The notes under the pieces are model-generated. The model was not told where the DNA came from. It made no database searches and worked only from the letters and a program-made list of their open reading frames with translations. Positions 1,292-23,875 of a stretch of 64,000 nt of DNA are shown here, in pieces. Source of the stretch: Pyrinomonadaceae bacterium (lineage in GTDB: Bacteria > Acidobacteriota > Blastocatellia > Pyrinomonadales > Pyrinomonadaceae); NCBI GenBank assembly GCA_036277115.1, contig DASUNM010000015.1, positions 108,451-172,450 on the forward strand, given 5' to 3'. How positions within the stretch are numbered: position 1 is the stretch's first letter; every line of letters starts with the position of its first letter. The translations under genes and the position numbers were made by a program.

Positions 1292-1301
1292 GGTTGAAGC
1301 C

Positions 1302-2753: not shown

Positions 2754-2828
2754 GTTTCAACTGCGCCGTCTTTGTCAAAAGGAGCCCGACGAACCTTGAA
2801 TATCCCGGCTCGCTCGTCGCAATGATGC

Positions 2829-4592
2829 TCATCCCTCTGGATTAAGCGGTGAAGGTGATGCCTTCTCGCTTGCGCTTGAGATCACGGTAACAAAAAGCCT
2901 CTGGGACGTGCTCCCACCACGTCCGTCGTTTATTGTGACGTTTATGATCTTCTGTCCGGGCTCAACACCCGTCGAATTGAATATTGCGGTATCTCCTTTA
3001 TGAATGATCTCGCCGGCCGACGCTTTCCAGTCAAAGTAGAGAGGTGAGTCCCCGTCAGGATCGGTGGCAAAAACCCAGAGCTTTACCTGCCCACCAGTCT
3101 CTACGGTGAGGCTGTCGGCTGTGAAAAATTCAAGTTTCGGAGAATGGTTTGGCTTTACCTCAGGTGGTGCGCGCGTGGCTGTCGCGGGAGAGAATTGCCG
3201 CGGCAGTACTACAATCGTCAAATCTCCGCTAACCGCGCCTCCATGATTGTCAGTTACACGTAATGTAATTTTCACGGGAACAGGCGAAATAATGTGGCCC
3301 ATTCCCGCAGTGTTTAGGATTGCGGTGGAACCAGAATCGGAGTTCGTCTTTGCGATTTCCAACGCGGGTGACGAACTTTGCCAATCGTATGAGAGCATCG
3401 CGTTCGTAGTGCTCGCCTCAGCTAGAGCATACAAGGACACTATTTCTCCGACTCGTATCTGTTGATTGTTGCAATTGCAGCGCGGGGGAACTGTTAGGCT
3501 CGGCGGATTGTTCAGGACGTTGCGAGACACAACCGAAATCCGTTCTTGTCGGGACGCCGTTAATCCGAGTTCATCAGTCACGACCAATTCGATTGTAAGA
3601 TCAGTCGAGATCGCTTTTGGGATGATGCCATCCGTGTTTAGCAAAGCGTTCGCGCCGTCTCCGTTAATCGTGCCGGCAGATGAAAGCCAACGGTAGCGAA
3701 GTTCACCGCCATCTGGATCATCAGCCTGCGCTCTTAACGCGACGACCTGTCCTTGCTGAACGAGATGTTCACACTCAATTGCTCGAATGCGGGGCGGACT
3801 ATTCAGCCATTCCGTTAAGGTTTGCGAAACCGCGGCTACCGGCCCGCCCAGACCTACCAGAATTCCAAAAACACCAACGGCAATGCTGATGGTGGTTACC
3901 CAATGTGAAAACGTTCTGGGCCGGTGCACTCTTAACCACTCAAGCGGCAATTTACAGCGGTCAACCCACGTGCTTGAATTTGCGAATCCAGCGAGGTAAG
4001 CCAGGCTCTGCGGCTTGTCCGGCGCGTCGTGCTCATCCGGGGAGTCAGCGGGATCTTTCGCCGCGCCAACCTGTGTTAGCCACTCGTTGCAGAATGGACA
4101 TTCCAATCGGGGAGTTACGTATGTAATTCCCAAAATCGTGCATTCATGTTTAGCCAGGTTACTTGTGAGAGTCGCGACCAGACAGCCCGGGCAAACAGGA
4201 GACGCCCTTCCGTCTTGCAGAATCGCGAAGGACTTGCTTACTGAATTCTCGGACGCAATTGTCAGAAGCTTACAGTCGTTGCACAGAAACCATCGCGTGA
4301 CTGGGCGTTCACATTGCGAACATTGCGTATATGCGTCGTCACCTTCAAGGATCTCCCGTGGGACAAACTTCTCGCAATCGCAGCAGTACACCCAGAACTC
4401 CGTATACGGAAAATCGGTTGCAACTTCATGCCCGTTTGCACAGACGATGGTAGAGGCGCGCAGGGACGACACCGCTGCGCGCTCGGTCCTGCAATATACC
4501 TGTATTAGATCTGGCTTCGCGGTCGCGGTTGTGGTTGGTCGCATGTGAATCACGGACGAGCCCCCGCTTGTGCTCTGGGCCCCCGAAAACAT
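2829..4592 (-). CDS. Single-pass membrane protein: same 14-Cys module, TM helix, three PKD/Ig-like repeats
   Basis: 587-aa ORF. Residues 33-168 align with the Cys modules of the two neighbouring genes. TM helix WVTTISIAVGVFGILVGLGG. Three repeats of about 90 aa contain DPDGGELRYRW, LSYDW and DPDGDSPLYFDW. Confidence 0.75.
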   Translation of the reverse strand: MFSGAQSTSGGSSVIHMRPTTTATAKPDLIQVYCRTERAAVSSLRASTIVCANGHEVATDFPYTEFWVYCCDCEKFVPREILEGDDAYTQCSQCERPVTRWFLCNDCKLLTIASENSVSKSFAILQDGRASPVCPGCLVATLTSNLAKHECTILGITYVTPRLECPFCNEWLTQVGAAKDPADSPDEHDAPDKPQSLAYLAGFANSSTWVDRCKLPLEWLRVHRPRTFSHWVTTISIAVGVFGILVGLGGPVAAVSQTLTEWLNSPPRIRAIECEHLVQQGQVVALRAQADDPDGGELRYRWLSSAGTINGDGANALLNTDGIIPKAISTDLTIELVVTDELGLTASRQERISVVSRNVLNNPPSLTVPPRCNCNNQQIRVGEIVSLYALAEASTTNAMLSYDWQSSSPALEIAKTNSDSGSTAILNTAGMGHIISPVPVKITLRVTDNHGGAVSGDLTIVVLPRQFSPATATRAPPEVKPNHSPKLEFFTADSLTVETGGQVKLWVFATDPDGDSPLYFDWKASAGEIIHKGDTAIFNSTGVEPGQKIINVTINDGRGGSTSQRLFVTVISSASEKASPSPLNPEG

Positions 4593-4638
4593 CTTGTCAG
4601 CTTCCTACACTCTATTAATCGGACCTTGTCTCGCGAAA

Positions 4639-6603
4639 CTATTCGTATTCGCTGCCGGCTGAAAGTTGTTGGGCTTCGTTCAGTTTCTCTTTGATCTTCT
4701 CGAGGTTCATGTTGGCAGTTCCGACGGCCTGTGGACTGAGCACCCATTGGTACTCTGTTATCGCGGTCTCAAAATCCTTCTCGATCATTGCAATGTCGCC
4801 CAACCACGCGTGAGGGCGCGCCCAGTCAGGCGCGAGCTGAACTGCTTTCTTGTAGAAAACCTTAGCCTCAGAGTAGTTTCTTTCCATGTAATATGAGGTG
4901 CCTAAATTGTTGTAAGGATTTGCCCAATTGGGATTGCGGCGAACTGCGTCAGAATAGAGTGTCCGCGCCGTTGAATAGTTCTTGAGCGATGCGTAGACCA
5001 GCCCCGCGCTGTTGGCAGGTAGAGCCCATGACGGATCCAGTTGGGCCGCTTTTACCCAGTGCTCAATCGCAGCTTGATTCTGGTTAGCCAAGTAGGCCAC
5101 TCGACCCTGGCAGTAGGCACTCTTTGCGCTAATAAGACTGTCACCAGGCTTCAATTCAGTAGCCCATGACATCGCTCTCGTGGCGATTTGCCATTCCGAG
5201 GCTGGCGCTTCTTCATAGCCAGGCTGAAGCAGGTTTTGGGTAAGCTGCGTGGCCTGCCTCGTCAGTAACGGCACCAGTCGCTCTCGGTACTTGCGCAACG
5301 TCTCGTCATTGGCGCCGTTGGCTTTCAGTTGGTTGTAGAGTTGATAGGCGTTCTGGCTTGCAGGCGGAAATAAATTGCCTCTCGCTATTGCGTCGTCAAG
5401 CTGCTTCTCGACGCTGTTACTTCCCACGGTGTTAAGGGAAACAGCAATAATCACAACCAGCAGGAACACCAATCCAATGCCTGCCATCAGAACCTTGACT
5501 GCGGTTGACAGAGGTGATGGGATTCGCGAAGTGGAAGGCGACGCCGACCAGGAAGTAGTGTCGATCGGCGAAGCCGTCACGTTCTCAACGTCACCAACAA
5601 ACGATCCAGCAGGTGTCGATCCGGGGACAGGTAGGTTCTCCGGTGCAGTCAATTCAACTGGTAGAGTGACGCTTTCATAGTCAGCCGCCCCAGAGGCTCC
5701 GAAGGCCAGGCCACAGCGTCCACAAAATTGCTCGGTGGGTTTTCCGGCGGTACCACAGTTGGGGCAGACGATAAGTTCTTGCGTAATGCGCTGCGGCCCG
5801 GCGAGCTTGATTTCGATTGCGCCTGCTTCTTTGACGACCCACCCGGCCTCAGTCCGATCGACTGACGCAGGTCGAATGACAATAATCTCGCCCGCTGATG
5901 GGTTGTCGCAGTTAAAGAGTTCGTAATAGGTGTCGTAATACTGCCGCTTCGATTTAAGTTTCCTGGCCTTAGGAATCGCGAAGGACAAGTTCAGGCCGGG
6001 CACACCCGGCAAAAGGACGTAGTCGCCGTCGGCCGACGCTGTTAGTTGGTTTCCAGCGCTATCCAATTTCAGTTTGGTTGTCGTCTTGAGACTGGTTAAG
6101 CACTCTGACACCGTGCACGGAAAATCCGGCAGGCGTTCAAGGACTTCATCGCAGAAAGGACAAGTGGAAAAGCTCGTCACGAAAGAGGCGCCGTAGTCGC
6201 GACAGTCGTGGTCGATGACGGAATGTGAAGGCTCTTGCAGACAGCCCGGACAGGTGGGAGTCGGTATGCCGTTCGTGATCGCAAAGACCTTGCGACGACC
6301 TGGTTCGTCTGATTCGACACTAATGACATTACAGTCCCCACAGACATAGCGGCGGACTACGTTGCGTTCACAAGCTGGACATTCTTTGCTGGCGGCTTCT
6401 TTTTTTGCCGTATCAACGAGCCAGCAATGCTGGCAGTCACAGCAATATTCCCACGACGAGCTGTCCGGAAAATTCTTGGCGAGAGCATGGCCACCTGACG
6501 CACAGAGAATTGGCTTACTCGACGGGGCGTCGAAACCCACTTTATGGGTGATGCAATAAGCGCGAATTACGCGAGCGGTAATCGCGTCGGCTGGGGCAGC
6601 CAT
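4639..6603 (-). CDS. Single-pass membrane protein: 14-Cys module, shared YY..YYE..PSAG domain, double zinc ribbon, TM helix, periplasmic TPR repeats
   Basis: ORF 4639..6690. The ATG at 6603 has a GAGGAG RBS and avoids overlap with the upstream gene. Cys module encoded at nt 6151-6558. CPNCG..FCGRCG at nt 5710-5766. TM helix VLMAGIGLVFLLVVIIAVSL. The C-terminal part has TPR-like repeats (AYCQGRVAYL, ALPANSAGLVY, NPYNNLGTSYY). Confidence 0.75.
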   Translation of the reverse strand: MAAPADAITARVIRAYCITHKVGFDAPSSKPILCASGGHALAKNFPDSSSWEYCCDCQHCWLVDTAKKEAASKECPACERNVVRRYVCGDCNVISVESDEPGRRKVFAITNGIPTPTCPGCLQEPSHSVIDHDCRDYGASFVTSFSTCPFCDEVLERLPDFPCTVSECLTSLKTTTKLKLDSAGNQLTASADGDYVLLPGVPGLNLSFAIPKARKLKSKRQYYDTYYELFNCDNPSAGEIIVIRPASVDRTEAGWVVKEAGAIEIKLAGPQRITQELIVCPNCGTAGKPTEQFCGRCGLAFGASGAADYESVTLPVELTAPENLPVPGSTPAGSFVGDVENVTASPIDTTSWSASPSTSRIPSPLSTAVKVLMAGIGLVFLLVVIIAVSLNTVGSNSVEKQLDDAIARGNLFPPASQNAYQLYNQLKANGANDETLRKYRERLVPLLTRQATQLTQNLLQPGYEEAPASEWQIATRAMSWATELKPGDSLISAKSAYCQGRVAYLANQNQAAIEHWVKAAQLDPSWALPANSAGLVYASLKNYSTARTLYSDAVRRNPNWANPYNNLGTSYYMERNYSEAKVFYKKAVQLAPDWARPHAWLGDIAMIEKDFETAITEYQWVLSPQAVGTANMNLEKIKEKLNEAQQLSAGSEYE

Positions 6604-6670
6604 AGCAATGTACTCCTCTTGGGAAACCTGTCGACTCGGGATTATCAGCGTCAGCGTGTTAGCTCGGGCT

Positions 6671-7837
6671 CTAACGCACTTCGAGAACACCTTTCTCTCT
6701 CAACTGCCAACCTCCGGGAACGGTTGAGACGATGGCCGGGTCGATTATCCAGACATCTCCCGCGGAGGGTCTCTGGCATTCGTAATATCTCTCGTAGTAC
6801 GAATGAAACTCTTGCTTCGTCTGGAACTGAGCCACGCGCGGCACGACAAACAAAGGCTGAGCGTCATCGGCAACGCTTGCATCACGAATCAGGACCAACT
6901 CGCCTTTGCCGTCGATGTCATTCACCAGAATTCCGTTTTGGAAATCGGGTTTTACGACCGTTGAATTTCGCCTTTTCTTGTCCAGGTACTCATTGACCGA
7001 GGCGGGAAACTCAGGTTCAATCGGCTGTGGCGTTAGTCGTGAGTAGTCGTCGAAAGCCTGCCGAACCGTACCGCCGCCATAACCACCGTCGGGGCTTTGC
7101 CTGATTCGCCGTCCCAGCGCCTGCAGTTCGCCTTCAATCGATTCCAATCGTCCAGATGTTTTTTGCTGCTCATTCAGTGCTGCGCTGAACTGTTTGTTCA
7201 ACTCGTCGTGGCGGCGCTTAACGCCGGTTACATGGGCTTTCACAAGTTCGTTCACGTGGTCATCAAATTTCGCCCAGTAGCCTTTGCGCAGTCTCAGAGC
7301 ACCGAAGACGGCAAGCGCTATGAGGCCTGCTGCTGCAATTCCTCCGGCGATTGGCCAGATTAGACTCAGCAAGCCACCCCCTTCATCGCCACGTCCGGGA
7401 GACACCTCAGATCCAGAGGATTGCGTCTGAGAATCCGCAGGGCTGACAGTTGTCTTTGGGACACTTGCGGCAAAAGTCTCAGCGTCGGCGATCGCCCTAT
7501 CCATCGCCTTCACTTTGTCGCCGCGCAAGAAAGTTTTACCCCTCGCGACCACCTGTTGTTTCTCAGCGTCAATTGCCTCGCGGAGTTCGGTAGCAGCGTT
7601 CTTCACTCTTTGTTTGTCACTCGAGTTCTTCGCGGACGACAAAAATCTATTCGCAGCCGTTTCCAGTGACCTGCCTAACTGGGGCTCTTTGGTTTTGAGG
7701 GCTTTTTCCAGATCGCTTAAAGATTGCGCCAAAGCGGATTTGCTTTCTGCTTCTGTGGGCTGTGCGCGAACCGTGAAGGACCAGCCCACGCAAAAACAAA
7801 TCACTAGAAGGTAATTCAAATATGACGGAGCTCTCAT
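6671..7837 (-). CDS. Signal peptide, coiled-coil ectodomain, TM helix, cytoplasmic coiled coil, C-terminal YY..YYE..PSAG domain
   Basis: ORF 6671..7891. The ATG at 7837 has a GGAGG RBS. Signal-like YLNYLLVICFCVGWSFTVRAQ. TM helix LLSLIWPIAGGIAAAGLIALAVFGAL. The C-terminal 115 aa resemble the middle domain of the 4639..6603 protein. Confidence 0.7.
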   Translation of the reverse strand: MRAPSYLNYLLVICFCVGWSFTVRAQPTEAESKSALAQSLSDLEKALKTKEPQLGRSLETAANRFLSSAKNSSDKQRVKNAATELREAIDAEKQQVVARGKTFLRGDKVKAMDRAIADAETFAASVPKTTVSPADSQTQSSGSEVSPGRGDEGGGLLSLIWPIAGGIAAAGLIALAVFGALRLRKGYWAKFDDHVNELVKAHVTGVKRRHDELNKQFSAALNEQQKTSGRLESIEGELQALGRRIRQSPDGGYGGGTVRQAFDDYSRLTPQPIEPEFPASVNEYLDKKRRNSTVVKPDFQNGILVNDIDGKGELVLIRDASVADDAQPLFVVPRVAQFQTKQEFHSYYERYYECQRPSAGDVWIIDPAIVSTVPGGWQLREKGVLEVR

Positions 7838-7856
7838 CTTTGCCTCCTCAGCAGTG

Positions 7857-10800
7857 TCAGCTCTCTTTACTTTGCACGCGATAATTTCCATTCACTTGCG
7901 CGAGCGTGTCCAGAAAGTCCTTGTTGCTGCGGCGGGAATAAAAGACTTCGGACAAAAAGTGATTGATTGGCGAGACCTCAAGCCGCTCGATGCGCCCACT
8001 GAGTGTGGATACGAAATCATCGACTCGCCCGTTGATATTGGTCCACGCTTCTCCTGGCATGTTGTCCTCTTCACCAGCACGAACATTGCCAATGGAGGTG
8101 AAAACCGAAAGCACGGGACTCAAGGGAACTTCGAGATCTGCGGGAGCATCAAATCTGCCATTCTCGACTTGTTCGACGCCCGGGAACTTTTGTTCGAACG
8201 TCTCAGTCCCCCATCGCTCACACCAGCGGATGGTGGCCGGAGGCGAGCCGCTTAATTCCAGGCCTTCCAGGGTGAATCCCGCGTAGGGCGTTGCGGATGC
8301 ACCATCTCTCGATGCGCGCGTGCGCGCGGCATTCAGAGCGCCTAAGGCCACGTTAGTCTTGGCCTTACTCAGGTTCTCCTCGTTCAGCAGGATTAGGTTG
8401 TAGATCTTGAGCGCCTCTAGATATTCCCGCTCTTCTTCCGTGACCACCGCTGCCAATTTTTCTTTCAGTAAGTTGAGAATTCTTTTGGCTTCCTTCTCGA
8501 GGTGTCCGCCAAGGCGCTTGAACTCACCGAACAGCATCAATCCCCAACCGTTGCCGCCCAAAATCAGGTTGATGCCACTTGAGGGCTTCAGCTTCTGCTC
8601 GACGGCTGCCGCGCATGCTTGCAGCAAGGCGTAGGCGAGAATGTGTTGAAAAAAGAGGCGGGTGCGGTATCTCTGGTAGGACTGCGTGCCCATTCCTTTC
8701 CGCAAAATTGCGGATTCACGCTCTTGAAACTGCTGATCATTGAGACTGCTGATCCAGACCGAATACGTGATGTCGAGGTCAAAGCTGGGATCCGGATTCA
8801 GCAGTTTTAGTTCCGCGTCATCATTCGCACCCTGGAGTAATCGGCGCAGATGTTTCTTGAACTCACTCGCCCCAAGCAGATCGTTACCGAAATTCTTCTT
8901 CGCAAATTGAAAGAAGGTCTTGCCGGCAACGCGGATGCTGTCCAGGACCAGAAATCGCCGGTCGTGACTGACAGCGATGTCCGCCGTGCCCCCACCAACA
9001 TCGACGAAGACTTCCATCGTCGCTTTGTTGCCAACCGATCCGATCGATTCAGCAATCGCAGTGCTCTCGTCTACTCCTTCTTCATAATTCACGTCCTTAC
9101 CCAAGCCAGTTCCATAACAGATGTTACGTACCCGTTTCAGGGCCTGCCTTACCTTGTTGTGATAGCTGTCGCGATCGTCCTTTCGGAAGGCGAGCGGAAA
9201 CGTAAATACGTATCGATCGATAAGCATCCGCTTGCTAAAGAACATCTCGGCGTGCGCATACAGCAACGTGAGTTGCAGAAAGAGTGTTCGCCACGGCTCG
9301 GTCTTGCCATCGAGATCCCACTTTAGGTTGGCATGCGGCTTCCAGGTTTTGTTGAGGTCCCCTTGATACAGTCGTTGCTCGAGATCTCTATGCAACCCTG
9401 GGATGTCTACTTTGAAAATCTCGGCGACTGAAACGTCCTCCGATTTCAGCGCGTCGGTGAGGTTGGGATCACTCCTGCGCGATAAGAGAATAGTCGGGAA
9501 GAAACCTTTTGTGGTAGTCGCATTCCACTTATAAGGAAAGAAGCCCGGTAGTTCCAACGCCTCGCTCAGATCGCCACGCTTCCCCCACACGGGCCTGGGC
9601 GCAATGGTGAATCTCAAGATCTCCGGCTGACTGTCGCTGAACGCGTAGGCCAGGCAAGTGTTGCTGGTCCCGAAGTCAACGGACAGTTTCGTATCAAGCT
9701 CGCGATTAGCGGTTTGGTCTCCGCCGAAGTCCGCAAGGAAAAGTATGCCGCGCTCTCGCTCGCCATTGTCGGTCAACGCGAGAGCACGCGGTTGGTTCGG
9801 GACCTCCGAACCGGAGAGGACGCTTACGTACTCTTCCTCTTCGACATCGACCAATTTGCCGAGCCGGCCGTTCTGATCCACCAGGTGCCAACGGCCGGAG
9901 TCTTCCTTAGTGCCAAACCCGTACGCCGCGTACAAACGCCATTCACTCGACACCTTGGGCGGCCAGATCGCGAGCGACGAAGCGGCAAGACCCTTGGCGT
10001 ACGATGGTCGTGTCTGCCACTTCACTTCCCTGCCCGGCATGACCGGAATCGTCCATTCCACCGATGCGCCTTCAAGGCTTGGGAGCGCGGATACTTTTTC
10101 CAGGTTAGTCAGAATCTCGGGAAAGTGCCGAATAAATTCGCTTCTTATCGGCGCAAGACACACCGCCGCATCCTTCTCGGTGACCACCGGATCGCGTAAT
10201 TCCATTTTGTGAACCGATCGGATGTGCGCGGCCTGGGTATCTGAAGTCTTCGGAATCTTGCACCAGTGCGGAGTGTCGCTGAGGAACAGATCCTTCAACA
10301 AAACGATTTCATCGTTTTCAGATATTCGGCAACTAAATCGGCGGCCGGGTAACTCGACTACGATTTCCTTATCGTTCAGTTTCCGATACTGGTAGGGCGC
10401 GGGTCCGCTGGGAACGGTAGCCGCTTTCATCCACGGTTGCAGTTCGGGCAAACCATCCAGCAGATAAAAGATGCGGCCAACATTTTTCTCGTCATCCTGC
10501 TCAGTCGAGCGCTTGGCTTTACGCAACGGATAAAGCTGGAGCAACTCGTCGCTTTCCCAGTGTTTGAGCCCAGGAACCTCCCAGCTCGACGGATCCGTTT
10601 CAAGACTCCCGGTTAGATCAATTCGCCCTTTGAAGTTAGCTTCACAGAAATCGTACAGACGATCCTGAAGCGTCCGGCTTGAGACTGCGTATTCCGCAAT
10701 TAACCTGAGGTGGGCATGGAAGTCCTGGTTTTCCTTGTCACTGGTGAGAAGAATGCGCCGGCTTCGGGTCCAAGACAGTCGATCGTCCAGTAGGTAATCG

Positions 10801-11309
10801 GCAAGCGTCTTGTCCTTTTGCCAGGCAGTCCGATCTCGCGCCGGGAAAAAGATTACCGCGGGATAGTATGCGCCAACCACGGTTTCGTTGTGTTGGAGAA
10901 GCTTGAGAGACCTTGGCGCCTGTTCGCGAACACTGGGATAGGTGCCACTAAGAGCTTGCCAAAGATCGCGATCATAGTTTTGCTGAAGGTAGCTCTGTTT
11001 GAACTCCGCCAGGTGCGCAACTCCAAAGTAATGAAGGAGAAAAAGCGTGATCCACTCTTCGACCGCTGTTGAAACCTCGTCCGCAAAAGCTCCCGCTTCC
11101 GCGCCTGTTTTGACCGGCAGGTCGAGCACTTTCCGAAACGCGTATCCCGCCGCCCAAGCGGTTGGAAAAGTCTCGAAATATTGCGGGTCATAGTCGGGAC
11201 TTGTTAGATATTCAGTTCGCACAGCACGAAAGGACCGCTTTTCGGCAATCCCAGCGCCACCACCCAAGATTCCGGAATTCAGAAATTCCCTTCGATTACC
11301 GTTATTCAT
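7857..11309 (-). CDS. Giant actin/Hsp70-fold ATPase-like protein with an N-terminal region of about 540 aa of unknown function
   Basis: ORF 7857..11321 starts at TTG; the ATG at 11309 has GGAG 7 nt upstream. Phosphate-1 VDFGTSNT is encoded at nt 9657-9680. DESTAIAES precedes phosphate-2 VDVGGGTAD at nt 8979-9005. ILGGNGWG is the adenosine-type motif. Confidence 0.8.
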   Translation of the reverse strand: MNNGNRREFLNSGILGGGAGIAEKRSFRAVRTEYLTSPDYDPQYFETFPTAWAAGYAFRKVLDLPVKTGAEAGAFADEVSTAVEEWITLFLLHYFGVAHLAEFKQSYLQQNYDRDLWQALSGTYPSVREQAPRSLKLLQHNETVVGAYYPAVIFFPARDRTAWQKDKTLADYLLDDRLSWTRSRRILLTSDKENQDFHAHLRLIAEYAVSSRTLQDRLYDFCEANFKGRIDLTGSLETDPSSWEVPGLKHWESDELLQLYPLRKAKRSTEQDDEKNVGRIFYLLDGLPELQPWMKAATVPSGPAPYQYRKLNDKEIVVELPGRRFSCRISENDEIVLLKDLFLSDTPHWCKIPKTSDTQAAHIRSVHKMELRDPVVTEKDAAVCLAPIRSEFIRHFPEILTNLEKVSALPSLEGASVEWTIPVMPGREVKWQTRPSYAKGLAASSLAIWPPKVSSEWRLYAAYGFGTKEDSGRWHLVDQNGRLGKLVDVEEEEYVSVLSGSEVPNQPRALALTDNGERERGILFLADFGGDQTANRELDTKLSVDFGTSNTCLAYAFSDSQPEILRFTIAPRPVWGKRGDLSEALELPGFFPYKWNATTTKGFFPTILLSRRSDPNLTDALKSEDVSVAEIFKVDIPGLHRDLEQRLYQGDLNKTWKPHANLKWDLDGKTEPWRTLFLQLTLLYAHAEMFFSKRMLIDRYVFTFPLAFRKDDRDSYHNKVRQALKRVRNICYGTGLGKDVNYEEGVDESTAIAESIGSVGNKATMEVFVDVGGGTADIAVSHDRRFLVLDSIRVAGKTFFQFAKKNFGNDLLGASEFKKHLRRLLQGANDDAELKLLNPDPSFDLDITYSVWISSLNDQQFQERESAILRKGMGTQSYQRYRTRLFFQHILAYALLQACAAAVEQKLKPSSGINLILGGNGWGLMLFGEFKRLGGHLEKEAKRILNLLKEKLAAVVTEEEREYLEALKIYNLILLNEENLSKAKTNVALGALNAARTRASRDGASATPYAGFTLEGLELSGSPPATIRWCERWGTETFEQKFPGVEQVENGRFDAPADLEVPLSPVLSVFTSIGNVRAGEEDNMPGEAWTNINGRVDDFVSTLSGRIERLEVSPINHFLSEVFYSRRSNKDFLDTLAQVNGNYRVQSKES

Positions 11310-11347
11310 CGTGATCTCCAATATCCGTTCGACCGGTTAACCTAAAT

Positions 11348-13051
11348 CTACGCGGCGCCGACCGCTCGCATCCGTTTCTGAGTTCGGGAAAATAACCTTG
11401 ACCATACCAGCCTTAGATATTCTCCACGAGTAAACTCGGCGGTCTCCGGGCACCAGTCGCCGAATTCGAAAGTAGATACACGGATCGACGATCGGCCAAG
11501 CTCAAGTTCCCCTTTTGCTTCTCTGCTCGTTAATTTCTTGGCCGTCTTTGCTGTGATCTCCTTCAGACTGTGCGGATCGCTTGAGAGGAACGGCCGAAGT
11601 TTGGCCACATCTTCGCCGCTCCACCCCACGGTGTGATCCGGATTGGGATCGAGCGTCGTATCAAGGAACTTGGCGAGCAGATTGGCAGCGCCATTGAATC
11701 GCTTCCAATCTTCGAGCTTGCGATTTTCGTTATCGGCGTACACTTCGCGCAGGCGTTTAATCTCTTTGGGCCAGGTGCGCGCCGGCAGGTCCCACGGAAT
11801 TTGCTGGGTAACAAGATGGTGCATGACCGCAGCAGACAAGAACACCGCTTCCGGCTCGATCTCAGTCTCACCGGCCGTGTAACGAGGAAGATGACGCAGA
11901 CTCATTTTTTCCGAGTCGAGATCCGGCGTTGATGCGCCGATCACATACGACTCCGGATTCCCGGTACCCGCGCGGGAGAAAAAGTTTAGCGCCGCCAGCG
12001 CGCCAACTATTTCCGCCGAGTTGAGTGGATTTCTTTGACTCTTACCGCCATTGCTCCAAACCTTTAATTTGTCAGGCTCAGGCTTGCCGGCAAGATAAAG
12101 TTCGTCAAAGTATTCCGCGCTGTGATCGCGGTAATATGCGAGGGCTTGCCGAGCGCGCGCCTCCATCGCTTCGGGTTCGGCGTAAAAACCGAGAAGGATC
12201 TGCTCGACGAGCTTTCGCTTATCCTCGATTGGCAGTCCATTGAATGCCGGTTTGTCGCCATGTTCTTTCGCAAGATCGTCAATCTGCTGGGTCGTCGGGT
12301 AATCGTCCTTAAGCGCGCCAAACGGAGGCTGCGGCGGCACACAGTACGGTGTCAGCAGGCAGGCGCCAACGCGCCAATCCCACGTCTGATTTTCTTTCTT
12401 GAGCGTGCCGAGATATTTGCCCATGACAGGAACTCCGCACGCGCCTGTCCCGCCATGAAGACTTCCGCAAAGGAAGAAGTTCGTGCTGACGTTTTGAAAT
12501 GCCGTCAGACTGCACGCTTTGCCACCGGGTGAATTCTCGTCGCGCAGCGATTCAGCGAAAACCGCCATAACCGCGGCGCCAATAAATGGCTTCTGATAGA
12601 AGCCGCGGTCAATTTCGACGTCAAGGTCTTTCTTTTCATAAAACGGAGAGAGAAATGGGAGCGAACTCTTGGTGGCGCCATATCTTGAATCGAGAATGCC
12701 GCCCAGGTTCTTCACAATGTTGTCAGAGTTAGAAGCCTGGGGTAGCTGCAACGGATCCAAGTGGCGAACTCGCATATCAATGTCCATCGCCCATCTACTA
12801 CTGGCCATACCGCCGGTTTGCTGCCCATTCAGCAACTCTTGCAGCTCCTGATAATCCTTTAGGCAATTTCCGAGAGCGACAGCCGCACCGGAATTCAAAT
12901 CCGGATCCAATCTCCAAATCTGCAAGGAATGACCGGCGCTCGTGAGTACGTCCTTCTCACTGTGCGTCGGGAAACCGATTGCCAGCAGACGAACCAGCGC
13001 TTCGGCCACCTTGGTGCCACTGCCGCCAACTGCAATAAAAACGTTGCGCAT
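11348..13051 (-). CDS. Divergent tubulin/FtsZ-superfamily GTPase (Tubulin_2-like)
   Basis: 567-aa ORF. N-terminal strand plus T1-like loop VFIAVGGSGTK (nt 13010-13027). T4 tubulin-signature-like HGGTGACG (nt 12434-12457), comparable to FtsZ GGGTGTGAAP. Confidence 0.8.
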   Translation of the reverse strand: MRNVFIAVGGSGTKVAEALVRLLAIGFPTHSEKDVLTSAGHSLQIWRLDPDLNSGAAVALGNCLKDYQELQELLNGQQTGGMASSRWAMDIDMRVRHLDPLQLPQASNSDNIVKNLGGILDSRYGATKSSLPFLSPFYEKKDLDVEIDRGFYQKPFIGAAVMAVFAESLRDENSPGGKACSLTAFQNVSTNFFLCGSLHGGTGACGVPVMGKYLGTLKKENQTWDWRVGACLLTPYCVPPQPPFGALKDDYPTTQQIDDLAKEHGDKPAFNGLPIEDKRKLVEQILLGFYAEPEAMEARARQALAYYRDHSAEYFDELYLAGKPEPDKLKVWSNGGKSQRNPLNSAEIVGALAALNFFSRAGTGNPESYVIGASTPDLDSEKMSLRHLPRYTAGETEIEPEAVFLSAAVMHHLVTQQIPWDLPARTWPKEIKRLREVYADNENRKLEDWKRFNGAANLLAKFLDTTLDPNPDHTVGWSGEDVAKLRPFLSSDPHSLKEITAKTAKKLTSREAKGELELGRSSIRVSTFEFGDWCPETAEFTRGEYLRLVWSRLFSRTQKRMRAVGAA

Positions 13052-13067: not shown

Positions 13068-13385
13068 CTAAATAATTTCGCGCCGCCAAGGGCTCACCAG
13101 ATGACCGGTAAACATGCACAGAATGTAGATAATCCACGCCATTACAATTCCTTTCATCAACCCCCCGACGCCCACGAAGTTGAAGAAGTTCCTGGTCATA
13201 TACCAAACAACCAGCAGTACGATCACGACCGGAATTAGCCCGACCACGATTAGCAGCATCGTCTGTCCTCGGCTCCACGCCTTCTGAACGATGTTGATGG
13301 CCATGTACTTCCTGAGCCATTTGAAGCCCAACATCACGAGCGCGCAGATCGCCGCGATCACCAGAGCTGCTATGACCCAGTTCAT
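13068..13385 (-). CDS. Small 3-TM membrane protein
   Basis: ORF 13068..13559. The ATG at 13385 avoids overlap with the vWA gene. Three hydrophobic helices are present. Its stop lies 17 nt before the tubulin-like start. Confidence 0.6.
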   Translation of the reverse strand: MNWVIAALVIAAICALVMLGFKWLRKYMAINIVQKAWSRGQTMLLIVVGLIPVVIVLLVVWYMTRNFFNFVGVGGLMKGIVMAWIIYILCMFTGHLVSPWRREII

Positions 13386-13489
13386 CGCAGTTTCTTCGCA
13401 TCCTTCCTCGTCACAAGCGTCCAGGAATAATTCGAGAAAGCCTGAGCCTTGAATTAGAATTGCCAACACGCGCGTATCTCCCTTCTCAC

Positions 13490-14995
13490 TTAATCCGACG
13501 GCCCAATCCGCAAGTAGGCCTTCGCGACCACTTGATCCTTTGCTGTCGAGTTGTTCCACAGCCCAAGAAGCGCTGTCTCAAGATTGAATGTCCGGTTAGC
13601 AGTTTCCGGCGTTGTATCGAGATCGGTAGACCAACTCTTGATCCATTCCGGCGTACCTTGGTTGAGATTGACGCGACCCTCTACGCTGTAGAACCGCCAG
13701 GAAGGTTCTCCTGTTCCCGGTGGATACGACGCGGTCGCCTCCAAAACGAGATTGCCACCTTCAAGATGCGCGCCGGTTATGTTGAGCTCGGGAAATCTCG
13801 CGCCCGATTTACTGTCACTTGGGGGGTGGATTGGCTTGAGTTCCCATTTGATCAACCGGACAAGTTCCTGTTCATTGCCCGCATCGAGAGCATGAGAAGA
13901 CCAGGGCACTTTTACTTGAATCGTAAACGGCTTCGGTCCGGACCGCTCGGTATCAACATCCACTTGCATCGTGAATCTCTGCGGCGGGCCGCCCTGGTTT
14001 TTCGCCTTGTGGAGCGCCCCTCGTGATTCTTTGGGAACGGAAATTTCGAACTGGGCCGCAGCGTCCGTGTATGGGAAAGATAAATTCAACTCTCGGATGC
14101 AATCTAAGCAGTTGTCTATCAATGGACGTAGACGCTCTTTGAGGGATCGCACCAGCGAATCAAGCGCAACCTGATCGGGCGAGAAGATGTAAAGGAAGAA
14201 GGGGCGGAAGGAGGATGGATTGTTGTTCCTGGTCTCGTACGGGATGGCGGCGCCGCTCACTTCTGAATACACCTTGCCGCGAAAATCTGCGCGAACGCCC
14301 AGCACGCATCCACCCCAACCCGCCTTCAGTAACTCCGCAATCTTTTGCCTGACGCAAAATTGATCGGAGCCGGCGTTACAGTTTTGGTTCGTATCTCCTT
14401 TTTTGGTGGATTGCACGCCGTCAGTAACCAGGATTTGGAACCGAGCTGGCGGCGGCGGCTCCGCGGAATCGGTGCCGTTGCTTCGAGTTGGAGTTGCCGC
14501 CTGCTTTGAACCAGTGCCGTTGGGCTGGTAGCCGACTTTGAATGCGCTGATGGCGCCCGACAGGTTTGTTTCACCGGCACGATAAACGGAAGGGTCTTGC
14601 GAGGCAGTAGTCAGATCCATATCGGGAAGCGGCGGCCCAATTGCGGAGCCTACTCGGCGGACGGAGACGCGCACGTCAGGACCCGCGAAAGTTCCAGTGG
14701 CAAAACGAAGCTCTCGCAATGTCTTGCCGAAAATTGTCTGGCCGTCGCGTGACACGTAGCCGGCCATGCTCCCGCTTTCATCCAGATAGACAATGAGTTC
14801 GTTAGTAGTCGCGATCGATGGCGACGGCGGAAGAGATGTCGCCGGCTTGTTCTTCACCTCAGGCGGCCATTCCGGCGCTGGAGTGCCACATCCTGTAAAC
14901 AAAACCAAACCGCTTAGAACCAGCACGTGCCACGAGACGCTCAAGAGTCGGGTTCGCGCATTGATAGCTTGGGTGTGTTTGTAGTGTCTAGTCAT
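13490..14995 (-). CDS. vWA-domain lipoprotein
   Basis: 501-aa ORF. Lipobox LFTGC. MIDAS motif DESGS at nt 14768-14782 (ELIVYLDESGSMAG), followed later by ILVTDGVQS. Confidence 0.8.
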   Translation of the reverse strand: MTRHYKHTQAINARTRLLSVSWHVLVLSGLVLFTGCGTPAPEWPPEVKNKPATSLPPSPSIATTNELIVYLDESGSMAGYVSRDGQTIFGKTLRELRFATGTFAGPDVRVSVRRVGSAIGPPLPDMDLTTASQDPSVYRAGETNLSGAISAFKVGYQPNGTGSKQAATPTRSNGTDSAEPPPPARFQILVTDGVQSTKKGDTNQNCNAGSDQFCVRQKIAELLKAGWGGCVLGVRADFRGKVYSEVSGAAIPYETRNNNPSSFRPFFLYIFSPDQVALDSLVRSLKERLRPLIDNCLDCIRELNLSFPYTDAAAQFEISVPKESRGALHKAKNQGGPPQRFTMQVDVDTERSGPKPFTIQVKVPWSSHALDAGNEQELVRLIKWELKPIHPPSDSKSGARFPELNITGAHLEGGNLVLEATASYPPGTGEPSWRFYSVEGRVNLNQGTPEWIKSWSTDLDTTPETANRTFNLETALLGLWNNSTAKDQVVAKAYLRIGPSD

Positions 14996-15029
14996 CGGCT
15001 ACCACTTCGGTCGTAATGCTCGGTACTCC

Positions 15030-15516
15030 CTACTGCGCAGTTGCGTGAGCGGCGAGGGGGGTTCGTCCGGCAAATGGCAGAGACATCGCGGCCGCCCGCT
15101 CCTCGTTGCTGAGGAATGGAGACGTGTGGACAGCAGCGTCCGCGTGGGACATCAACAGTTGTCCCTGCGCAGAAATGAGGACGCCCAGGAGAAAGAACAA
15201 GCCGCCGACAAGAACTCCAACCGCCACGCCGATCATGAGGCAAAAAGAAGAAGACGACTCCAGCCGCGGACTGACTGGCCGGACTCGGTCCGAAAGGTGC
15301 AGACGACTGGCTGCTTGAGCTGGCAGCAGCGCCAACGATGAACCAAAACATGAAAATGACTGCGCCCAGAATGACGCCAACGACTTTGACGGTCATGCCC
15401 AATCCGGTCATAACGCGCGCCGCTCGGTAAAGATCTAAATACCGGTGGACCAGAGCACTGCCTGGCCTTTCACTGTTTGTGTTGCCCGATGTCGTAGCGG
15501 CGTATGTGGAATCCAT
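15030..15516 (-). CDS. Small 2-TM membrane protein, apparently split by a 1-nt frameshift in a T5 run (pseudogene or assembly error)
   Basis: ORFs 14992..15516 and 15030..15380 overlap in different frames. The first has a plausible N-terminus and TM1. The second has a plausible TM2 and tail. Removing one T from TTCTTCTTTTTG (A5 at 15242-15246 on the plus strand) joins them into about 161 aa. Confidence 0.5.
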
Positions 15517-15592: not shown

Positions 15593-16663
15593 CTACGGAC
15601 TAGCGGGCGGAACGAGCACGGCTCGGGGCACCGTCATTTTTATCGACAACACTTCTTTCACTCGAGTAACACTCACGTTCTGCAGCGCTCGCAGCGCCTG
15701 CTCGTCGCGGTTGTTCGTTGCGGCCAGGGTTGAAAAGCGTTTCATCAAATTCAATGAACCGGTCACAACGGCTGCTGCCTGTTCGTCGCGCATCAAAACG
15801 CACATTTCCGCTGGGTACTCCTGATTTGTGCCGCGGCTCAGGTTCAGGCCAAAGCCTCGTGCGACGTTGATTTGCTTCAAAAGACTTCCGACGCCGCCCA
15901 GATCAAACAGCGACAGAGCGAGCGAGGTCGCTGTCAAAGCCGCATCCGCCATGTCCAGGCTGCCTTGCGGAATTACTAGAAAAGCTCGGACGGAGCTGTT
16001 CCGCGCTGTCATGCCTGCCGCAATTTGTTTGTAGGGAGATGAGGAAATAAATCTTTGTTGCGAGTCACCAAGCGCTCGGAAAACTGCGGCGGCGGCTTCA
16101 CGACTTCCGGCAAAGACGGTGCCCGTTTGCGGCAGGGCGACATAGTCCTTGCCGTTCGTATAGACAGGATGCCCGTCGACGCGCTGCTCTTGCCAGCCTC
16201 TCCCCTTTAGACTTGCTATCTCTTGTTTTCGATTGAACGAACCATGCACTAACAGCCCGGCCGTCGCCTGGGTGTTAATGCCACTAAAGACAACGGCGGT
16301 CTTGACTTCTTCGCTACTCAAAACGAGCTGCTGAAGGATCCCTTCAAACTGATCTCCTTTGAAAAGCTGTTTCAAGTCGTTGTCGTTTCGCACCGTCGCC
16401 CAATCGATAATCACAACAGCACAGCTATCAATCGGCACTAGATCAAGGACGCTCGATTGGCGGCGACTGCATGCGCACATCGACAACAGCAGCAGAGTGC
16501 TACACAACAAACCACATAGCTGCAACGCCGGTTTTCGCGCCTGCTTGAACACATGAGCAGCGATGCTTTCCTTGCACGACGGACCGCTTAGAGAATCCAA
16601 TCTCATGTGGTTGAATGCCTGCCTGAACCGCAATCCGCTCTTGCTTCGTCGGCTATAGTTCAT
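15593..16663 (-). CDS. Hypothetical lipoprotein / membrane-anchored protein
   Basis: 356-aa ORF. Hydrophobic LCGLLCSTLLLLSMCAC has a lipobox-like end. ATGA overlap with the upstream AraC-type gene. No motif recognised. Confidence 0.6.
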   Translation of the reverse strand: MNYSRRSKSGLRFRQAFNHMRLDSLSGPSCKESIAAHVFKQARKPALQLCGLLCSTLLLLSMCACSRRQSSVLDLVPIDSCAVVIIDWATVRNDNDLKQLFKGDQFEGILQQLVLSSEEVKTAVVFSGINTQATAGLLVHGSFNRKQEIASLKGRGWQEQRVDGHPVYTNGKDYVALPQTGTVFAGSREAAAAVFRALGDSQQRFISSSPYKQIAAGMTARNSSVRAFLVIPQGSLDMADAALTATSLALSLFDLGGVGSLLKQINVARGFGLNLSRGTNQEYPAEMCVLMRDEQAAAVVTGSLNLMKRFSTLAATNNRDEQALRALQNVSVTRVKEVLSIKMTVPRAVLVPPASP

Positions 16664-17124
16664 TTCGGGGACTCCTGCGTAACCAACAACTTGTTTTCAC
16701 TTGCGCGATTGCCGTCGCTGACGCGAGAGCATTCAAAATGGACCTTCCGATACTCCACCGGCGTCATGCCGTAGGCGGCCTTGAAGCTTTTAGTAAATTG
16801 GCTGGGATTCGGAATGCCTACAGCCGCACCAATCTGCTGAATCGAAAGAAAGCTGGTTTCCAATTGATCTTTCGCCTTTTGCAAACGCACCAGCGTCAGA
16901 TACCGCTGTGGAGACACTCCCGTCTCAGCCTTAAAAAGGTGAGCCAGGCGCCACGGAGAAAGATTTACCTCGGCACTCATGTCTCGTAATCCCAACTTGC
17001 GCTGGAATGAGCTTTCCAAGAACACGCGCACAATCTGCACTCTTCGGTCTCGTCCCTTCGCCGCCAAAACTTTGGCGCGATTCTGTTCAGAGTTCTCAAC
17101 ATTTTTGTCGCGCTTGTTCGACAT
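16660..17124 (-). CDS. Short AraC/XylS-family HTH regulator (DNA-binding domain only)
   Basis: 154 aa. NLSPWRLAHLFKAETGVSPQRYL and FLSIQQIGAAVGIPNPSQFTKSFKAAYGMTPVEYRK form the typical double HTH. Confidence 0.8.
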   Translation of the reverse strand: MSNKRDKNVENSEQNRAKVLAAKGRDRRVQIVRVFLESSFQRKLGLRDMSAEVNLSPWRLAHLFKAETGVSPQRYLTLVRLQKAKDQLETSFLSIQQIGAAVGIPNPSQFTKSFKAAYGMTPVEYRKVHFECSRVSDGNRASENKLLVTQESPK

Positions 17125-17494
17125 AATTCAACTTTCACCCGCCAGTTCGCGATTGTTGGGGTGGGAGTTCCCAACTGAACGCGAAACCCTCAAAGGTCGC
17201 GGGGTGAGAAACATTGAAATCTTCGCAGGGCAAAGCTGCCCCTCATGATTTCCTGTCGCTGTCGCAGTTTCCCGCGCAAGCCAAGCAACACGCGTGACGT
17301 TCAGTCGACGCGTCATTTAGTTTTTCAAGTTCAGCGGGATGATCCGAATTGCAAGTTGGGTCGGGGGATCACCAACGCAGACACAACTGAGAACTGAAGT
17401 GGACATTTAATGTTAAAGAAGAATGCATGCAACCACTTTTCGTTATAAGATCCTGCTAATAGTTTCGGTTTCTGCTATTACTTGGCTCATCTTG

Positions 17495-19067: not shown

Positions 19068-19118
19068 CGCTCTTTCAGCGGTCCGGTCTGTTGACAATGA
19101 ATTTCGACGCAATACGTT

Positions 19119-19739: not shown

Positions 19740-19748
19740 TGGCCATCA

Positions 19749-23336: not shown

Positions 23337-23554
23337 ACAGTGAACCGGTGTCGTTGGTTGAATGGCTAGTGCGCAGCTCGCGTCACCGGGAGGCGAGTTG
23401 GAGCAACAGAGAAGTACCTCAAGTGGTTGTCCTTTTAACATGGATAAGCGGCAGATTCAATGAATTTGGCCGCCACTGAACAATATCGTTACCAGCAACA
23501 GGGTAGTCCTCTTTTGAGGACTACCCTGTTGCTATTTGCGGAAAGGCAGACGTC

Positions 23555-23749: not shown

Positions 23750-23762
23750 TTTCGTGTCTCCT

Positions 23763-23793: not shown

Positions 23794-23875
23794 TAGCCCC
23801 TCAGCCGGGTGTAATCTCGTTCACACGAACTTACACCTGCGTCCCGGCATCGTCCCAGTTTCAAACATAAGCGGA

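Follow-up and report, generated by a model that had tools for sequence, protein, structure and literature searches.

A tubulin-like gene paired with an Hsp70/actin-fold ATPase

The window analyzed here is a stretch of 64,000 nucleotides from a Pyrinomonadaceae bacterium (Acidobacteriota; contig DASUNM010000015.1). On its minus strand it encodes a tubulin-like protein, called TUB_567, which is the subject of this study, and directly behind it a larger protein, ACT_1154, with an Hsp70/actin-type ATPase domain. Both genes belong to a minus-strand series in which neighboring genes overlap or are separated by gaps of <40 nucleotides, an arrangement consistent with a single operon. The two central genes are as follows.

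11348..13051, minus strand: tubulin-like protein TUB_567, 567 amino acids; translation starts MRNVFIAVGGSGTK
7857..11321, minus strand: partner ACT_1154, 1154 amino acids; encoded 26 nucleotides downstream of TUB_567

A preliminary description of this DNA had read the first of these open reading frames (ORFs) as a noncanonical GTPase of the tubulin/FtsZ superfamily. The ORF exists, encodes 567 amino acids, and carries motifs that are not a chance occurrence: a search of 5.8 billion proteins recovered >292 homologues (~560 to 570 amino acids, every one annotated as hypothetical), and those with a named taxon are from Blastocatellia, Pyrinomonadaceae, or other Acidobacteriota. Across 35 aligned homologues that are 53 to 88% identical to the window protein (A1), residues F5, I6, A7, G9, G10, S11, G12, F192, C195-A204, G206, and P208 are invariant (35/35), as are further blocks at GFYQKPFIG (150-158), P235/P239-F244, and W332-G336/Q339/N341/P342/N344. 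The motif glycines stay invariant in a second alignment of 60 more distant relatives of ~500 amino acids (A2), despite a mean column identity of 23%. This pattern of conservation indicates that the gene is real and under selection. A hydropathy scan found no transmembrane or hydrophobic segment in TUB_567, a soluble-looking protein of predicted cytoplasmic location.

Direct searches with TUB_567 were largely uninformative. There was no match to PF00091, FtsZ_C, or Tubulin_C in the protein, NCBIfam gave no match for it or for other core proteins of the operon (except sub-threshold MreB matches for the partner), sequence and profile searches against PDB chains returned nothing useful, and none of 120 listed close homologues has a precomputed match to Tubulin_2 (PF13809). 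The link to the superfamily runs through relatives. When the A1 profile was searched exhaustively against 1.84 billion cluster representatives, 1415 clusters scored E<=1e-3, and beyond the close family hmmsearch with A1 reached a large group of ~480- to 560-amino-acid proteins at E values of 1e-20 to 1e-30. Comparison of A1 with A2 by hhalign gave a probability of 100% (E=1.6e-51) over residues 1 to 394, and at E<=0.001 Tubulin_2 was matched by 47 of the 60 A2 members and PF00091 by 7. Among the A2 relatives listed, the majority have a precomputed PF13809 match; NCBI calls several of them "tubulin-like," and those with a name come largely from Cyanobacteria. From the T3-like stretch through T4, the A2 profile also aligned weakly (E=3.5) with PDB chain 4b45, a chain annotated as FtsZ.

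An AlphaFold2 model of TUB_567 built on A1 had a mean predicted local distance difference test score (pLDDT) of 84 and a predicted template modeling score (pTM) of 0.88. The preliminary description had proposed a Foldseek search of a predicted structure, with a different P-loop or Rossmann fold as the outcome that would speak against a tubulin relationship. All 50 of the best PDB matches were tubulin, FtsZ, or PhuZ (E values of 3e-4 to 6e-3; probability up to 1.00), and no competing fold appeared near the top of the Foldseek lists. Among predicted viral structures (BFVD), the six best matches included named phage tubulin, PhuZ, and tubulin-like proteins, the rest being unnamed; no match in this viral library reached E<=1e-3. 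The fold matches of the model, the homology between A1 and A2, and the Tubulin_2 matches of A2 together support placing TUB_567 as a divergent member of the Tubulin_2/FtsZ-like 1 branch. The proposed superfamily identity is thereby upheld for the N-terminal ~360 residues through fold matches, Tubulin_2-type relatives, and a sub-threshold Pfam match discussed below.

Structural elements were assigned from the secondary structure of the model together with the conserved blocks, and the names are those suggested by topology.

11978..13051, minus strand: predicted tubulin/FtsZ-type GTP-binding domain, residues 1-358, topology S1-H1...S6-T6-H7, with insertions at ~26-41 and ~76-150 (model DSSP, A1 blocks, A2 alignment)
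Residues 2-8: S1
13010..13027, minus strand: T1-like phosphate loop GGSGTK, residues 9-14; G9, G10, S11, and G12 invariant in A1, G9 and G10 in A2
Residues 9-25: H1
Residues 30-37: inserted hairpin
Residues 42-48: S2, ending in RLDPD (compare the FtsZ N-terminal domain)
Residues 55-75: H2
Residues ~76-150: insertion of lower confidence (pLDDT 66-75)
12575..12604, minus strand: T3-like loop GFYQKPFIGA, residues 150-159; G150-G158 invariant in A1, GF..P.IGA kept in A2
Residues 155-168: H3
Residues 190-197: S4
12428..12466, minus strand: end of S4 and T4 signature GSLHGGTGACGVP, residues 196-208 (T4, 198-206), counterpart of GGGTG(S/T)G; invariant in A1
Residues 201-220: H4
Residues 226-233: S5
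12320..12358, minus strand: end of S5 and T5-like loop LLTPYCVPPQPPF, residues 232-244 (T5, 234-244, TPYCVPPQPPF)
Residues 254-286: two inserted helices
Residues 293-310: H5
Residues 317-321: S6
Residues 322-344: T6, with WSNGGxSQxNPLN
11978..12058, minus strand: T6-like loop and H7-like helix WSNGGKSQRNPLNSAEIVGALAALNFF, residues 332-358; helix 345-358 in the model, T6/H7 assigned by topology
11849..11863, minus strand: acidic cluster E397-I-E399-P-E401, capping the N-terminus of the first helix that follows H7 (helix 400-417)
11351..11854, minus strand: family-specific C-terminal region, residues 400-567, mostly helical (400-555); outside the A1-A2 alignment, which ends at residue 394

The motif GGSGTK lies exactly where the preliminary description had put it. 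The second motif that it named, HGGTGACGVPV (residues 199-209), is present, with corrected coordinates of 12425-12457; the interval of 12434-12457 given earlier holds HGGTGACG only (8/11 residues). This shorter string (residues 199-206) is the T4 variant of the family; the sub-threshold Tubulin_2 match falls in the T4 region. The two motifs are 190 amino acids apart, as had been noted, compared with ~86 amino acids for the equivalent interval in Escherichia coli FtsZ (G19-N24 to G105-G111), and the large insertions suspected from this spacing appear in the model as ~100 extra amino acids between T1 and T4. In the T5-like loop, P235, P239, P240, P242, P243, and F244 are invariant in A1 and P-Y is invariant in A2; in the T6-like loop, W332-G336, Q339, N341, P342, and N344 are invariant in A1 and GG..Q.N is kept in A2. 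Since all the glycine-rich loops (T1, T3, T4, T5, and T6/H7) are intact, TUB_567 most likely binds GTP.

The C-terminal part is another matter. The preliminary description had found nothing in the last ~300 amino acids to align with the FtsZ C-terminal domain or a T7 synergy loop. Of this part, residues ~400-567 are family specific, but residues 210-358 still carry S5, H5, S6, T6, and H7 of the tubulin-type domain; the earlier figure was an overestimate because the GTPase domain reaches residue ~358. Residues 359-399, after H7, are poorly ordered in the model, and the helical domain beyond them lacks the beta-alpha-beta pattern seen in the C-terminal domain of FtsZ and tubulin; the model shows no coiled coil. 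Neither A1 nor A2, aligned by hhalign, yielded a T7 or C-terminal correspondence with E. coli FtsZ. The catalytic acids of FtsZ (D209/D212) and alpha-tubulin (E254) lie where the first helix behind H7 begins, and the acidic cluster of TUB_567 occupies the same topological place. The search for a T7 acid suggested in the preliminary description therefore had a divided outcome: the cluster is kept throughout the acidobacterial family as E-I-D-P-E (position 397 acidic in 31/35, position 399 D/E in 35/35, and position 401 E in 35/35 of the A1 sequences), whereas in the wider A2 family no position in this stretch is invariantly acidic and the best one reaches 77%. On the basis of the model, we consider E397/D399/E401 a candidate counterpart of the T7/H8 catalytic acid.

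The constant companion of TUB_567 contains an Hsp70/actin-type nucleotide-binding domain. In ACT_1154, a beta-rich N-terminal region of ~540 amino acids and unknown fold precedes an Hsp70 nucleotide-binding domain (NBD)/actin-fold ATPase domain at residues ~540-1000, in which two phosphate motifs were located.

9660-9677, minus strand: partner phosphate-1 motif DFGTSN, residues 549-554, invariant
8979-9002, minus strand: partner phosphate-2 motif DVGGGTAD, residues 774-781, invariant

The phosphate-1, phosphate-2, and adenosine motifs (the last as GGNGWG) are all invariant in the family. A profile of this family (A3) searched against the PDB matched MreB (7bvy, E=2.6e-7) and Hsp70 NBDs (~2e-3). 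An AlphaFold2 model of ACT_1154 (pLDDT 83.6) gave 508 Foldseek matches at E<=1e-3, led by DnaK/Hsp70 NBDs (~1e-9) and including a chain of the Arp2/3 complex. These profile and structure matches identify the C-terminal half as an actin/Hsp70-superfamily ATPase domain. The protein is 100% identical to NCBI VFX97_03490 (Pyrinomonadaceae bacterium, hypothetical, 1150 amino acids), for which the NCBI start is four codons downstream of the TTG used here.

The pairing of the two genes is conserved well beyond this genome. Tubulin-like and Hsp70-like genes are adjacent and in the same order in nearly all of ~45 acidobacterial loci with the downstream region present. Distant A2-type loci (L001, L051, L056, and L057) have a small protein, the tubulin-like protein, and then a protein of ~1000 to 1090 amino acids; two other contigs of this type (L053 and L054) end just past the tubulin-like gene. 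Two of these loci are from the cultured cyanobacteria Trichormus variabilis (L056) and Arthrospira (L057), where the tubulin-like and large-protein genes are adjacent, and the 1087-amino-acid Trichormus neighbor is homologous to ACT_1154 (hhalign probability 97.7%, E=1.9e-12). In five clusters the tubulin-like and Hsp70-like parts form one polypeptide: P0121 (1689 amino acids and a single ORF in the NCBI assembly), P0133, P0135, P0180, and the distant P0238 (1605 amino acids). The N-termini of all five fusions have tubulin-type T3/T6 motifs, and all but P0133 have the T4 motif as searched; the C-termini of all five have the Hsp70 phosphate-1 motif, and all but P0180, which is shorter than the other fusions and may be truncated, have phosphate-2. 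Adjacency across phyla and repeated fusion argue strongly that the two NTPases work as a single complex.

The conserved operon and its surroundings

A scan of one genome per species found 46 loci, almost all in Acidobacteriota (Blastocatellia, Pyrinomonadaceae, Chloracidobacterium, and Thermoanaerobaculia). The gene order common to ~45 loci by tblastn is a vWA-like lipoprotein, a small membrane protein, the tubulin-like protein, the Hsp70-like ATPase, a single-pass coiled-coil protein, and one to three zinc-ribbon membrane proteins. Hydropathy and domain content suggest that the operon is membrane associated; it occurs in Acidobacteria, and Cyanobacteria have a simpler version. In the window, the genes other than the central pair are as follows.

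15593..16663, minus strand: possible accessory lipoprotein, 356 amino acids; lipobox-like LSMCAC, no Pfam match
13490..14995, minus strand: probable vWA-like lipoprotein, 501 amino acids; lipobox LFTGC, DxSxS at D72-S76 (nucleotides 14768-14782), TDG at T191-G193
13068..13559, minus strand: small membrane protein with three to four hydrophobic helices by hydropathy; listed ORF of 163 amino acids with a GTG start
6671..7891, minus strand: single-pass membrane protein, 406 amino acids; signal-like N-terminus, polar outer region, cytoplasmic C-terminal domain; conserved downstream of the Hsp70-like gene
4639..6690, minus strand: zinc-ribbon protein with TPR outer domain, 683 amino acids; cytoplasmic zinc-ribbon-rich N-terminal domain, one transmembrane helix; Pfam TPR, DZR, and zinc-ribbon matches
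2829..4592, minus strand: paralogue with PKD/Big_9 outer domain, 587 amino acids; same Cys-rich N-terminal domain as the 683-amino-acid protein, one transmembrane helix
1302..2753, minus strand: paralogue with FGE-sulfatase (formylglycine-generating-enzyme-like) outer domain, 483 amino acids; same Cys-rich N-terminal domain as the 683-amino-acid protein, one transmembrane helix

Upstream of the central pair, the 501-amino-acid lipoprotein probably carries a divergent vWA domain, judging from its motifs: D72 and D192 are invariant in the family and S74 and T191 nearly so, and the gene is upstream in most loci. In ~40 loci, an orthologue of the small membrane protein gene directly precedes the tubulin-like gene. 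In the window, the listed ORF of the small membrane protein shares 70 nucleotides with the end of the gene upstream, and translation probably begins farther downstream than the listed GTG, since the orthologues are mostly 126 to 152 amino acids long and align from residue ~25 to 40. More distant systems have a gene of 150 to 182 amino acids at the same position, likened to it by position alone. The possible accessory lipoprotein of 356 amino acids has counterparts upstream in L005-L008, L038, and L039 and, by tblastn, between the tubulin-like and Hsp70-like genes in the distant L009 and L016.

Downstream, three zinc-ribbon paralogues are arranged in tandem in the window (1302-6690, minus strand), compared with one or two in other loci. 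The Cys and His residues of their N-terminal domain are invariant across 44 paralogues and orthologues, among which the outer domains were TPR (18 proteins), Big_9/PKD (4), FGE-sulfatase (3), NTF2-like (2), and SH3 (2). Residues 293-406 of the 406-amino-acid single-pass protein match residues 188-295 of the 683-amino-acid protein (BLASTP, E=1e-13). This common domain of ~110 amino acids has the motif YYxxYY...PSAG(D/E)..I.PA.V....GW...E.G..E and no Pfam match.

Other ORFs around the module were also noted. Next to the vWA-like gene, on its upstream side, a 174-amino-acid ORF (14992-15516, minus strand) contains a single hydrophobic helix; with no family match and a low-complexity tail, it is a doubtful gene. 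Farther upstream, at 16660-17986 (minus strand) and 18204-19739 (minus strand), an ECF-type sigma factor (206 amino acids), a single-pass anti-sigma-like protein (302 amino acids), and two small AraC-type helix-turn-helix proteins are encoded between the module and a CHAT-TPR gene. Four CHAT ORFs fall within 16 kb (19749-23441, minus strand; 23876-24922, minus strand; 26899-27624, minus strand; and 32991-35801, plus strand): two are full-length CHAT-TPR proteins (1230 and 936 amino acids), and the two short ones (348 and 241 amino acids) cover part of the CHAT profile only and are possible gene fragments. Among these ORFs lie genes for a TPR-only protein (27769-29364) and a Ser/Thr kinase (30281-32065). 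CHAT-TPR genes recur by the module in other loci, and the sigma/anti-sigma/CHAT layout is kept in the closest relatives (L005, L007, L008, L038, and L039) but not farther out. The sole RNA gene in the window is a tRNA-Leu(GAG) (37406-37490, minus strand), beside a minus-strand glycolytic cluster of triosephosphate isomerase (37991-38749), phosphoglycerate kinase (39836-41098), and GAPDH (41257-42264) into which a ricin-type lectin gene (38934-39746, plus strand) is inserted. Among the 132 flanking ORFs of 26 loci analyzed with Pfam and PADLOC, the families recorded were CHAT (6), amidohydrolases (5), TM2 (4), subtilases (3), and kinases (2). The TM2-domain protein is in the upstream flank of four other loci, and the L002 copy (7505-8071) has a weak GYF match too.

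Interpretation and alternative explanations

We propose, with a probability of roughly 0.6, that TUB_567 is the GTP-binding subunit of a conserved membrane-associated two-NTPase machine and not a divisome protein. In this model the tubulin-like protein would form a physical complex with the Hsp70/actin-fold ATPase, as strict adjacency and natural fusions suggest. The pair would sit at the inner face of the cytoplasmic membrane, anchored by the small multipass protein, the single-pass coiled-coil protein, and the one to three zinc-ribbon receptors, while the outer domains of the receptors (TPR, PKD/Ig, FGE, SH3, and NTF2) and the vWA-like lipoprotein would face the periplasm. A ligand or the status of the envelope might be sensed outside and relayed through the cytoplasmic zinc-ribbon domains of the receptors. 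This relay would alter how the tubulin-like/Hsp70-like complex assembles in dependence on GTP and ATP, whether it works as a switch or forms a short polymer on the membrane, and the assembly would in turn remodel the envelope or signal at it. Because no canonical C-terminal activation domain is recognizable, GTP hydrolysis would have to be triggered differently, probably by a noncanonical activating contact that involves E397/D399/E401 of a neighboring subunit or the partner protein.

A setting outside cell division, already suggested in the preliminary description, is borne out by the gene context. Its observation that ftsA, ftsQ, and mur genes are missing nearby agrees with a Pfam scan covering most window ORFs of at least 200 amino acids, among which no division or murein-synthesis gene was found. 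A canonical FtsZ role was rejected on context and domain content, with no PF00091/FtsZ_C match and no dcw-cluster genes among the scanned window ORFs, and a plasmid TubZ role was rejected on the same two grounds.

Several observations count against this proposal. The sole Pfam match of TUB_567 is Tubulin_2 (PF13809) at E=0.024, with 14.3 bits against a threshold of 27 bits, in the T4 region. Alignment to E. coli FtsZ by hhalign pairs S4-T4-H4 only, at E=0.082 for A1 (27 columns, residues 189-215 with FtsZ 95-121) and E=0.013 for A2. The insertions and the extra domain keep the Foldseek template modeling scores (TM-scores) low (0.15-0.35), so the fold assignment leans on the consistency of the matches and not on close superposition. 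The place of E401 is judged from the topology of the model. The vWA assignment is weak: VWA_2 was matched by 5/22 orthologues and VWA by 2/22, and comparison of the profile with the TRAP vWA domain gave E=0.27. Membrane topology and the direction of signaling are derived from hydropathy and domain types alone, and we found no published biochemical or genetic data for the tubulin-like family or for FtsZl1/Tubulin_2 generally.

The alternative that survives best concerns biological role and is compatible with the molecular description given above. Kaur, Burroughs, Iyer, and Aravind described DO-GTPase/GAP1-N2 conflict systems with tubulin or HSP70 components in 2020 (PMC7159879), and the module could be a biological-conflict (antiphage or anti-invader) system of that kind, in which the NTPases are regulated assembly or threshold parts and the outer domains are sensors. 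The domain "grammar" is indeed alike, as both combine tubulin, Hsp70, vWA, and zinc-ribbon domains with transmembrane segments and extracellular SH3, NTF2, beta-sandwich, and FGS domains, and both are predicted to act near the membrane; the GAP1-N2 repertoire also includes an extracellular PEGA domain (PMC7159879). A constant core accompanied by receptor paralogues that vary in number (one to three) and type fits the same picture. Some neighborhoods point in this direction as well. On a complete acidobacterial chromosome (L002/L023), the module is directly downstream of MmeI-type methylase, deaminase-HATPase_c_4, DUF3293, and McrBC genes (1-6000), and in a single-cell genome (L004/L017) the fused version adjoins relaxase, primase, and TraG/TrwB-like conjugation genes (19700-25000). 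The distant L001, a JGI metagenome contig with a Tubulin_2-type relative, has the order 433-amino-acid protein, 159-amino-acid protein, trypsin-like protease, tubulin-like protein, 1072-amino-acid Hsp70-like protein, 356-amino-acid protein, MotA/ExbB-like protein, and OmpA-like protein, and its protease, MotA/ExbB-like, and OmpA-like neighbors may be taken in the same sense. CHAT-TPR is, moreover, the most frequent flanking family (6/132 flanking ORFs), with several members in the window.

However, neither the defining DO-GTPase, a P-loop GTPase of the TRAFAC clade, nor GAP1 was detected by Pfam in the module proteins. Pfam holds models for both domains. Membership in a DO-GTPase/GAP1 system was rejected because these proteins are absent from the module within the detection limits of Pfam, NCBIfam, and PADLOC. 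PADLOC (PADLOC-DB v2) gave no match for the tubulin-like, Hsp70-like, vWA-like, or transmembrane proteins, and the PKD paralogue had a weak RmrT match only. The 132 flanking ORFs of the 26 loci show no general enrichment of defense genes, with only one locus by McrBC/MmeI, and no obvious toxic effector is present. In the 2020 survey, the tubulin and Hsp70 themes are nonoverlapping and restricted to Firmicutes and Actinobacteria (PMC7159879), whereas here they are combined, even fused, in Acidobacteria and Cyanobacteria, and the Hsp70-like protein is an 1100-amino-acid protein with an unassigned N-terminus of ~540 amino acids and not a DnaK accompanied by GrpE or DnaJ. Order and sequence are kept across an acidobacterial class, and identity appears to drop with taxonomic distance, which is more like the vertical inheritance of a lifestyle function. 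Because the flanks are heterogeneous and a single locus adjoins McrBC/MmeI, we did not adopt a defense system as the main explanation; we regard it as a serious alternative, if on the unlikely side.

A classical cytomotive filament of the TubZ, PhuZ, or BtubAB type would be a head-to-tail polymer with T7-type GTPase activation that moves or positions cargo. TUB_567 resembles TubZ and PhuZ in being, from sequence and model, a divergent prokaryotic tubulin-fold GTPase outside cell division. PhuZ, phage tubulins, and FtsZ filaments are among its fold matches, its nucleotide-binding loops are all intact, and the acidic cluster that begins the first helix after H7 is invariant in the close family. 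Yet the region after H7 is mostly helical and family specific instead of an alpha/beta FtsZ/tubulin C-terminal domain, and the acidic cluster is not kept in the wider family. There is no adaptor or centromere-type partner of the TubR/tubC kind, and the context is a chromosomal operon of membrane proteins. A 1:1 fusion to a partner of 1100 amino acids is also hard to square with a simple protofilament lattice and leans slightly toward a hetero-complex. We regard such a filament as quite improbable. It is highly improbable that TUB_567 is no tubulin homologue (with GGxG/GGTG loops convergent on another Rossmann-like or P-loop fold) or an inactive scaffold that does not bind nucleotide: although comparing profiles with E. 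coli FtsZ yields nothing significant outside T4, the PDB gave no sequence match, and TM-scores are low, the top 50 PDB fold matches are uniformly of the tubulin type, phage tubulins lead the viral matches, close homologues link strongly to Tubulin_2 and PF00091, and glycines invariant at every nucleotide-contacting loop across families at 23% mean identity argue for retained nucleotide binding.

Relation to described families and significance

Among described families, TUB_567 is closest to FtsZ-like 1 (FtsZl1; Pfam Tubulin_2, PF13809), described from sequence by Makarova and Koonin in 2010 (PMC2875224). The proteins described there are ~760 to 1210 amino acids long, with an FtsZ-like domain at the N-terminus, a long coiled coil, and a helical C-terminal domain, and are reported to have lost alignable T6-H7-T7 elements; their operons have a vWA protein upstream and membrane proteins, and some, as in Deinococcus, have a gene of ~108 amino acids immediately upstream and MotA/OmpA genes downstream (PMC2875224). 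TUB_567 shares with FtsZl1 a divergent GTPase domain with family-specific T1-T4 inserts, no recognizable C-terminal domain or, beyond the candidate acidic cluster, T7 loop, a setting outside division, and an operon with membrane proteins and a vWA-like protein upstream. The divergent vWA lipoprotein upstream fits the vWA-FtsZl1 linkage of the 2010 paper (PMC2875224), and the layout of L001 resembles Deinococcus FtsZl1 neighborhoods with MotA/TolQ/ExbB and OmpA genes (2010 supplementary table, PMC2875224). Unlike the described FtsZl1 proteins, TUB_567 is 567 amino acids long, has no coiled coil, and falls below the PF13809 threshold. Its constant partner, a giant Hsp70/actin-fold ATPase that is sometimes fused to it, also sets it apart. 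The 2010 paper does not discuss such a partner, although one Magnetospirillum FtsZl1 neighborhood lists a 1626-amino-acid DnaK-like gene; neither Acidobacteria nor a short Anabaena variabilis form is among its FtsZl1 entries (PMC2875224).

Other described groups are more distant. FtsZ-like 2 (FtsZl2) occurs in Proteobacteria only and is reported to keep T6, H7, and T7 and to have no conserved gene neighbors, one neighborhood listing a 735-amino-acid protein (PMC2875224). Like TUB_567, it is a noncanonical tubulin-superfamily protein that has no coiled coil, and its C-terminal ~300 amino acids are of unknown type. TUB_567 differs in being acidobacterial and in its strongly conserved operon, a separation that is made by description alone. 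With canonical FtsZ and tubulins, TUB_567 shares the predicted nucleotide-binding fold and the S4-T4-H4 signature; it differs in its ~100 amino acids of T1-T4 insertions, in having no detected FtsZ_C/Tubulin_C, and in having no conserved T7 acid across the wider family.

Noncanonical FtsZ-like proteins with vWA and membrane partners are thus already known from the sequence analyses of 2010 and 2020. No published experiment on the FtsZ-like 1/Tubulin_2 branch was found in the literature, nor was any description of the tubulin-like/Hsp70-like pair beyond the related work of Makarova and Koonin (2010) and Kaur et al. (2020). As far as the literature found is concerned, the short form with no coiled coil is new, as is its obligate, sometimes fused Hsp70/actin-fold partner accompanied by the small membrane protein. 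The zinc-ribbon receptor paralogues are likewise new, together with an acidobacterial family that stays under the Pfam threshold and is annotated as hypothetical.

Cytoskeletons in every domain of life are built on two kinds of NTPase, the tubulin type and the actin type, which normally belong to separate systems. In the operon described here, whose products are predicted to span the envelope, both folds are tightly coupled genetically in Acidobacteria and Cyanobacteria alike. A tubulin-like identity alone would be modestly interesting; for cytoskeleton specialists, the surprising part is the conserved and repeatedly fused tubulin-fold/actin-fold pair. The system also offers experimental handles: its tubulin-like protein is short and looks soluble, the partner is defined, an acidic cluster is a candidate for the activating role, and homologues occur in cultured Trichormus variabilis and Arthrospira. 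With these, it becomes testable whether tubulin folds that have no canonical C-terminal domain act as polymers or as switches and what role FtsZ-like systems play. More speculatively, the pair may be an obligate hetero-assembly of a tubulin fold and an actin fold, a membrane-anchored co-polymer or ring that couples extracytoplasmic sensing by the zinc-ribbon receptors and the vWA lipoprotein to envelope remodeling driven by nucleotides and represents an unrecognized class of prokaryotic cytoskeletal or signaling systems, widespread in Acidobacteria and Cyanobacteria. We consider this extended version unlikely, but if it is true, the hetero-assembly would be a machine that unites both classical cytoskeletal folds, in some species within one polypeptide.

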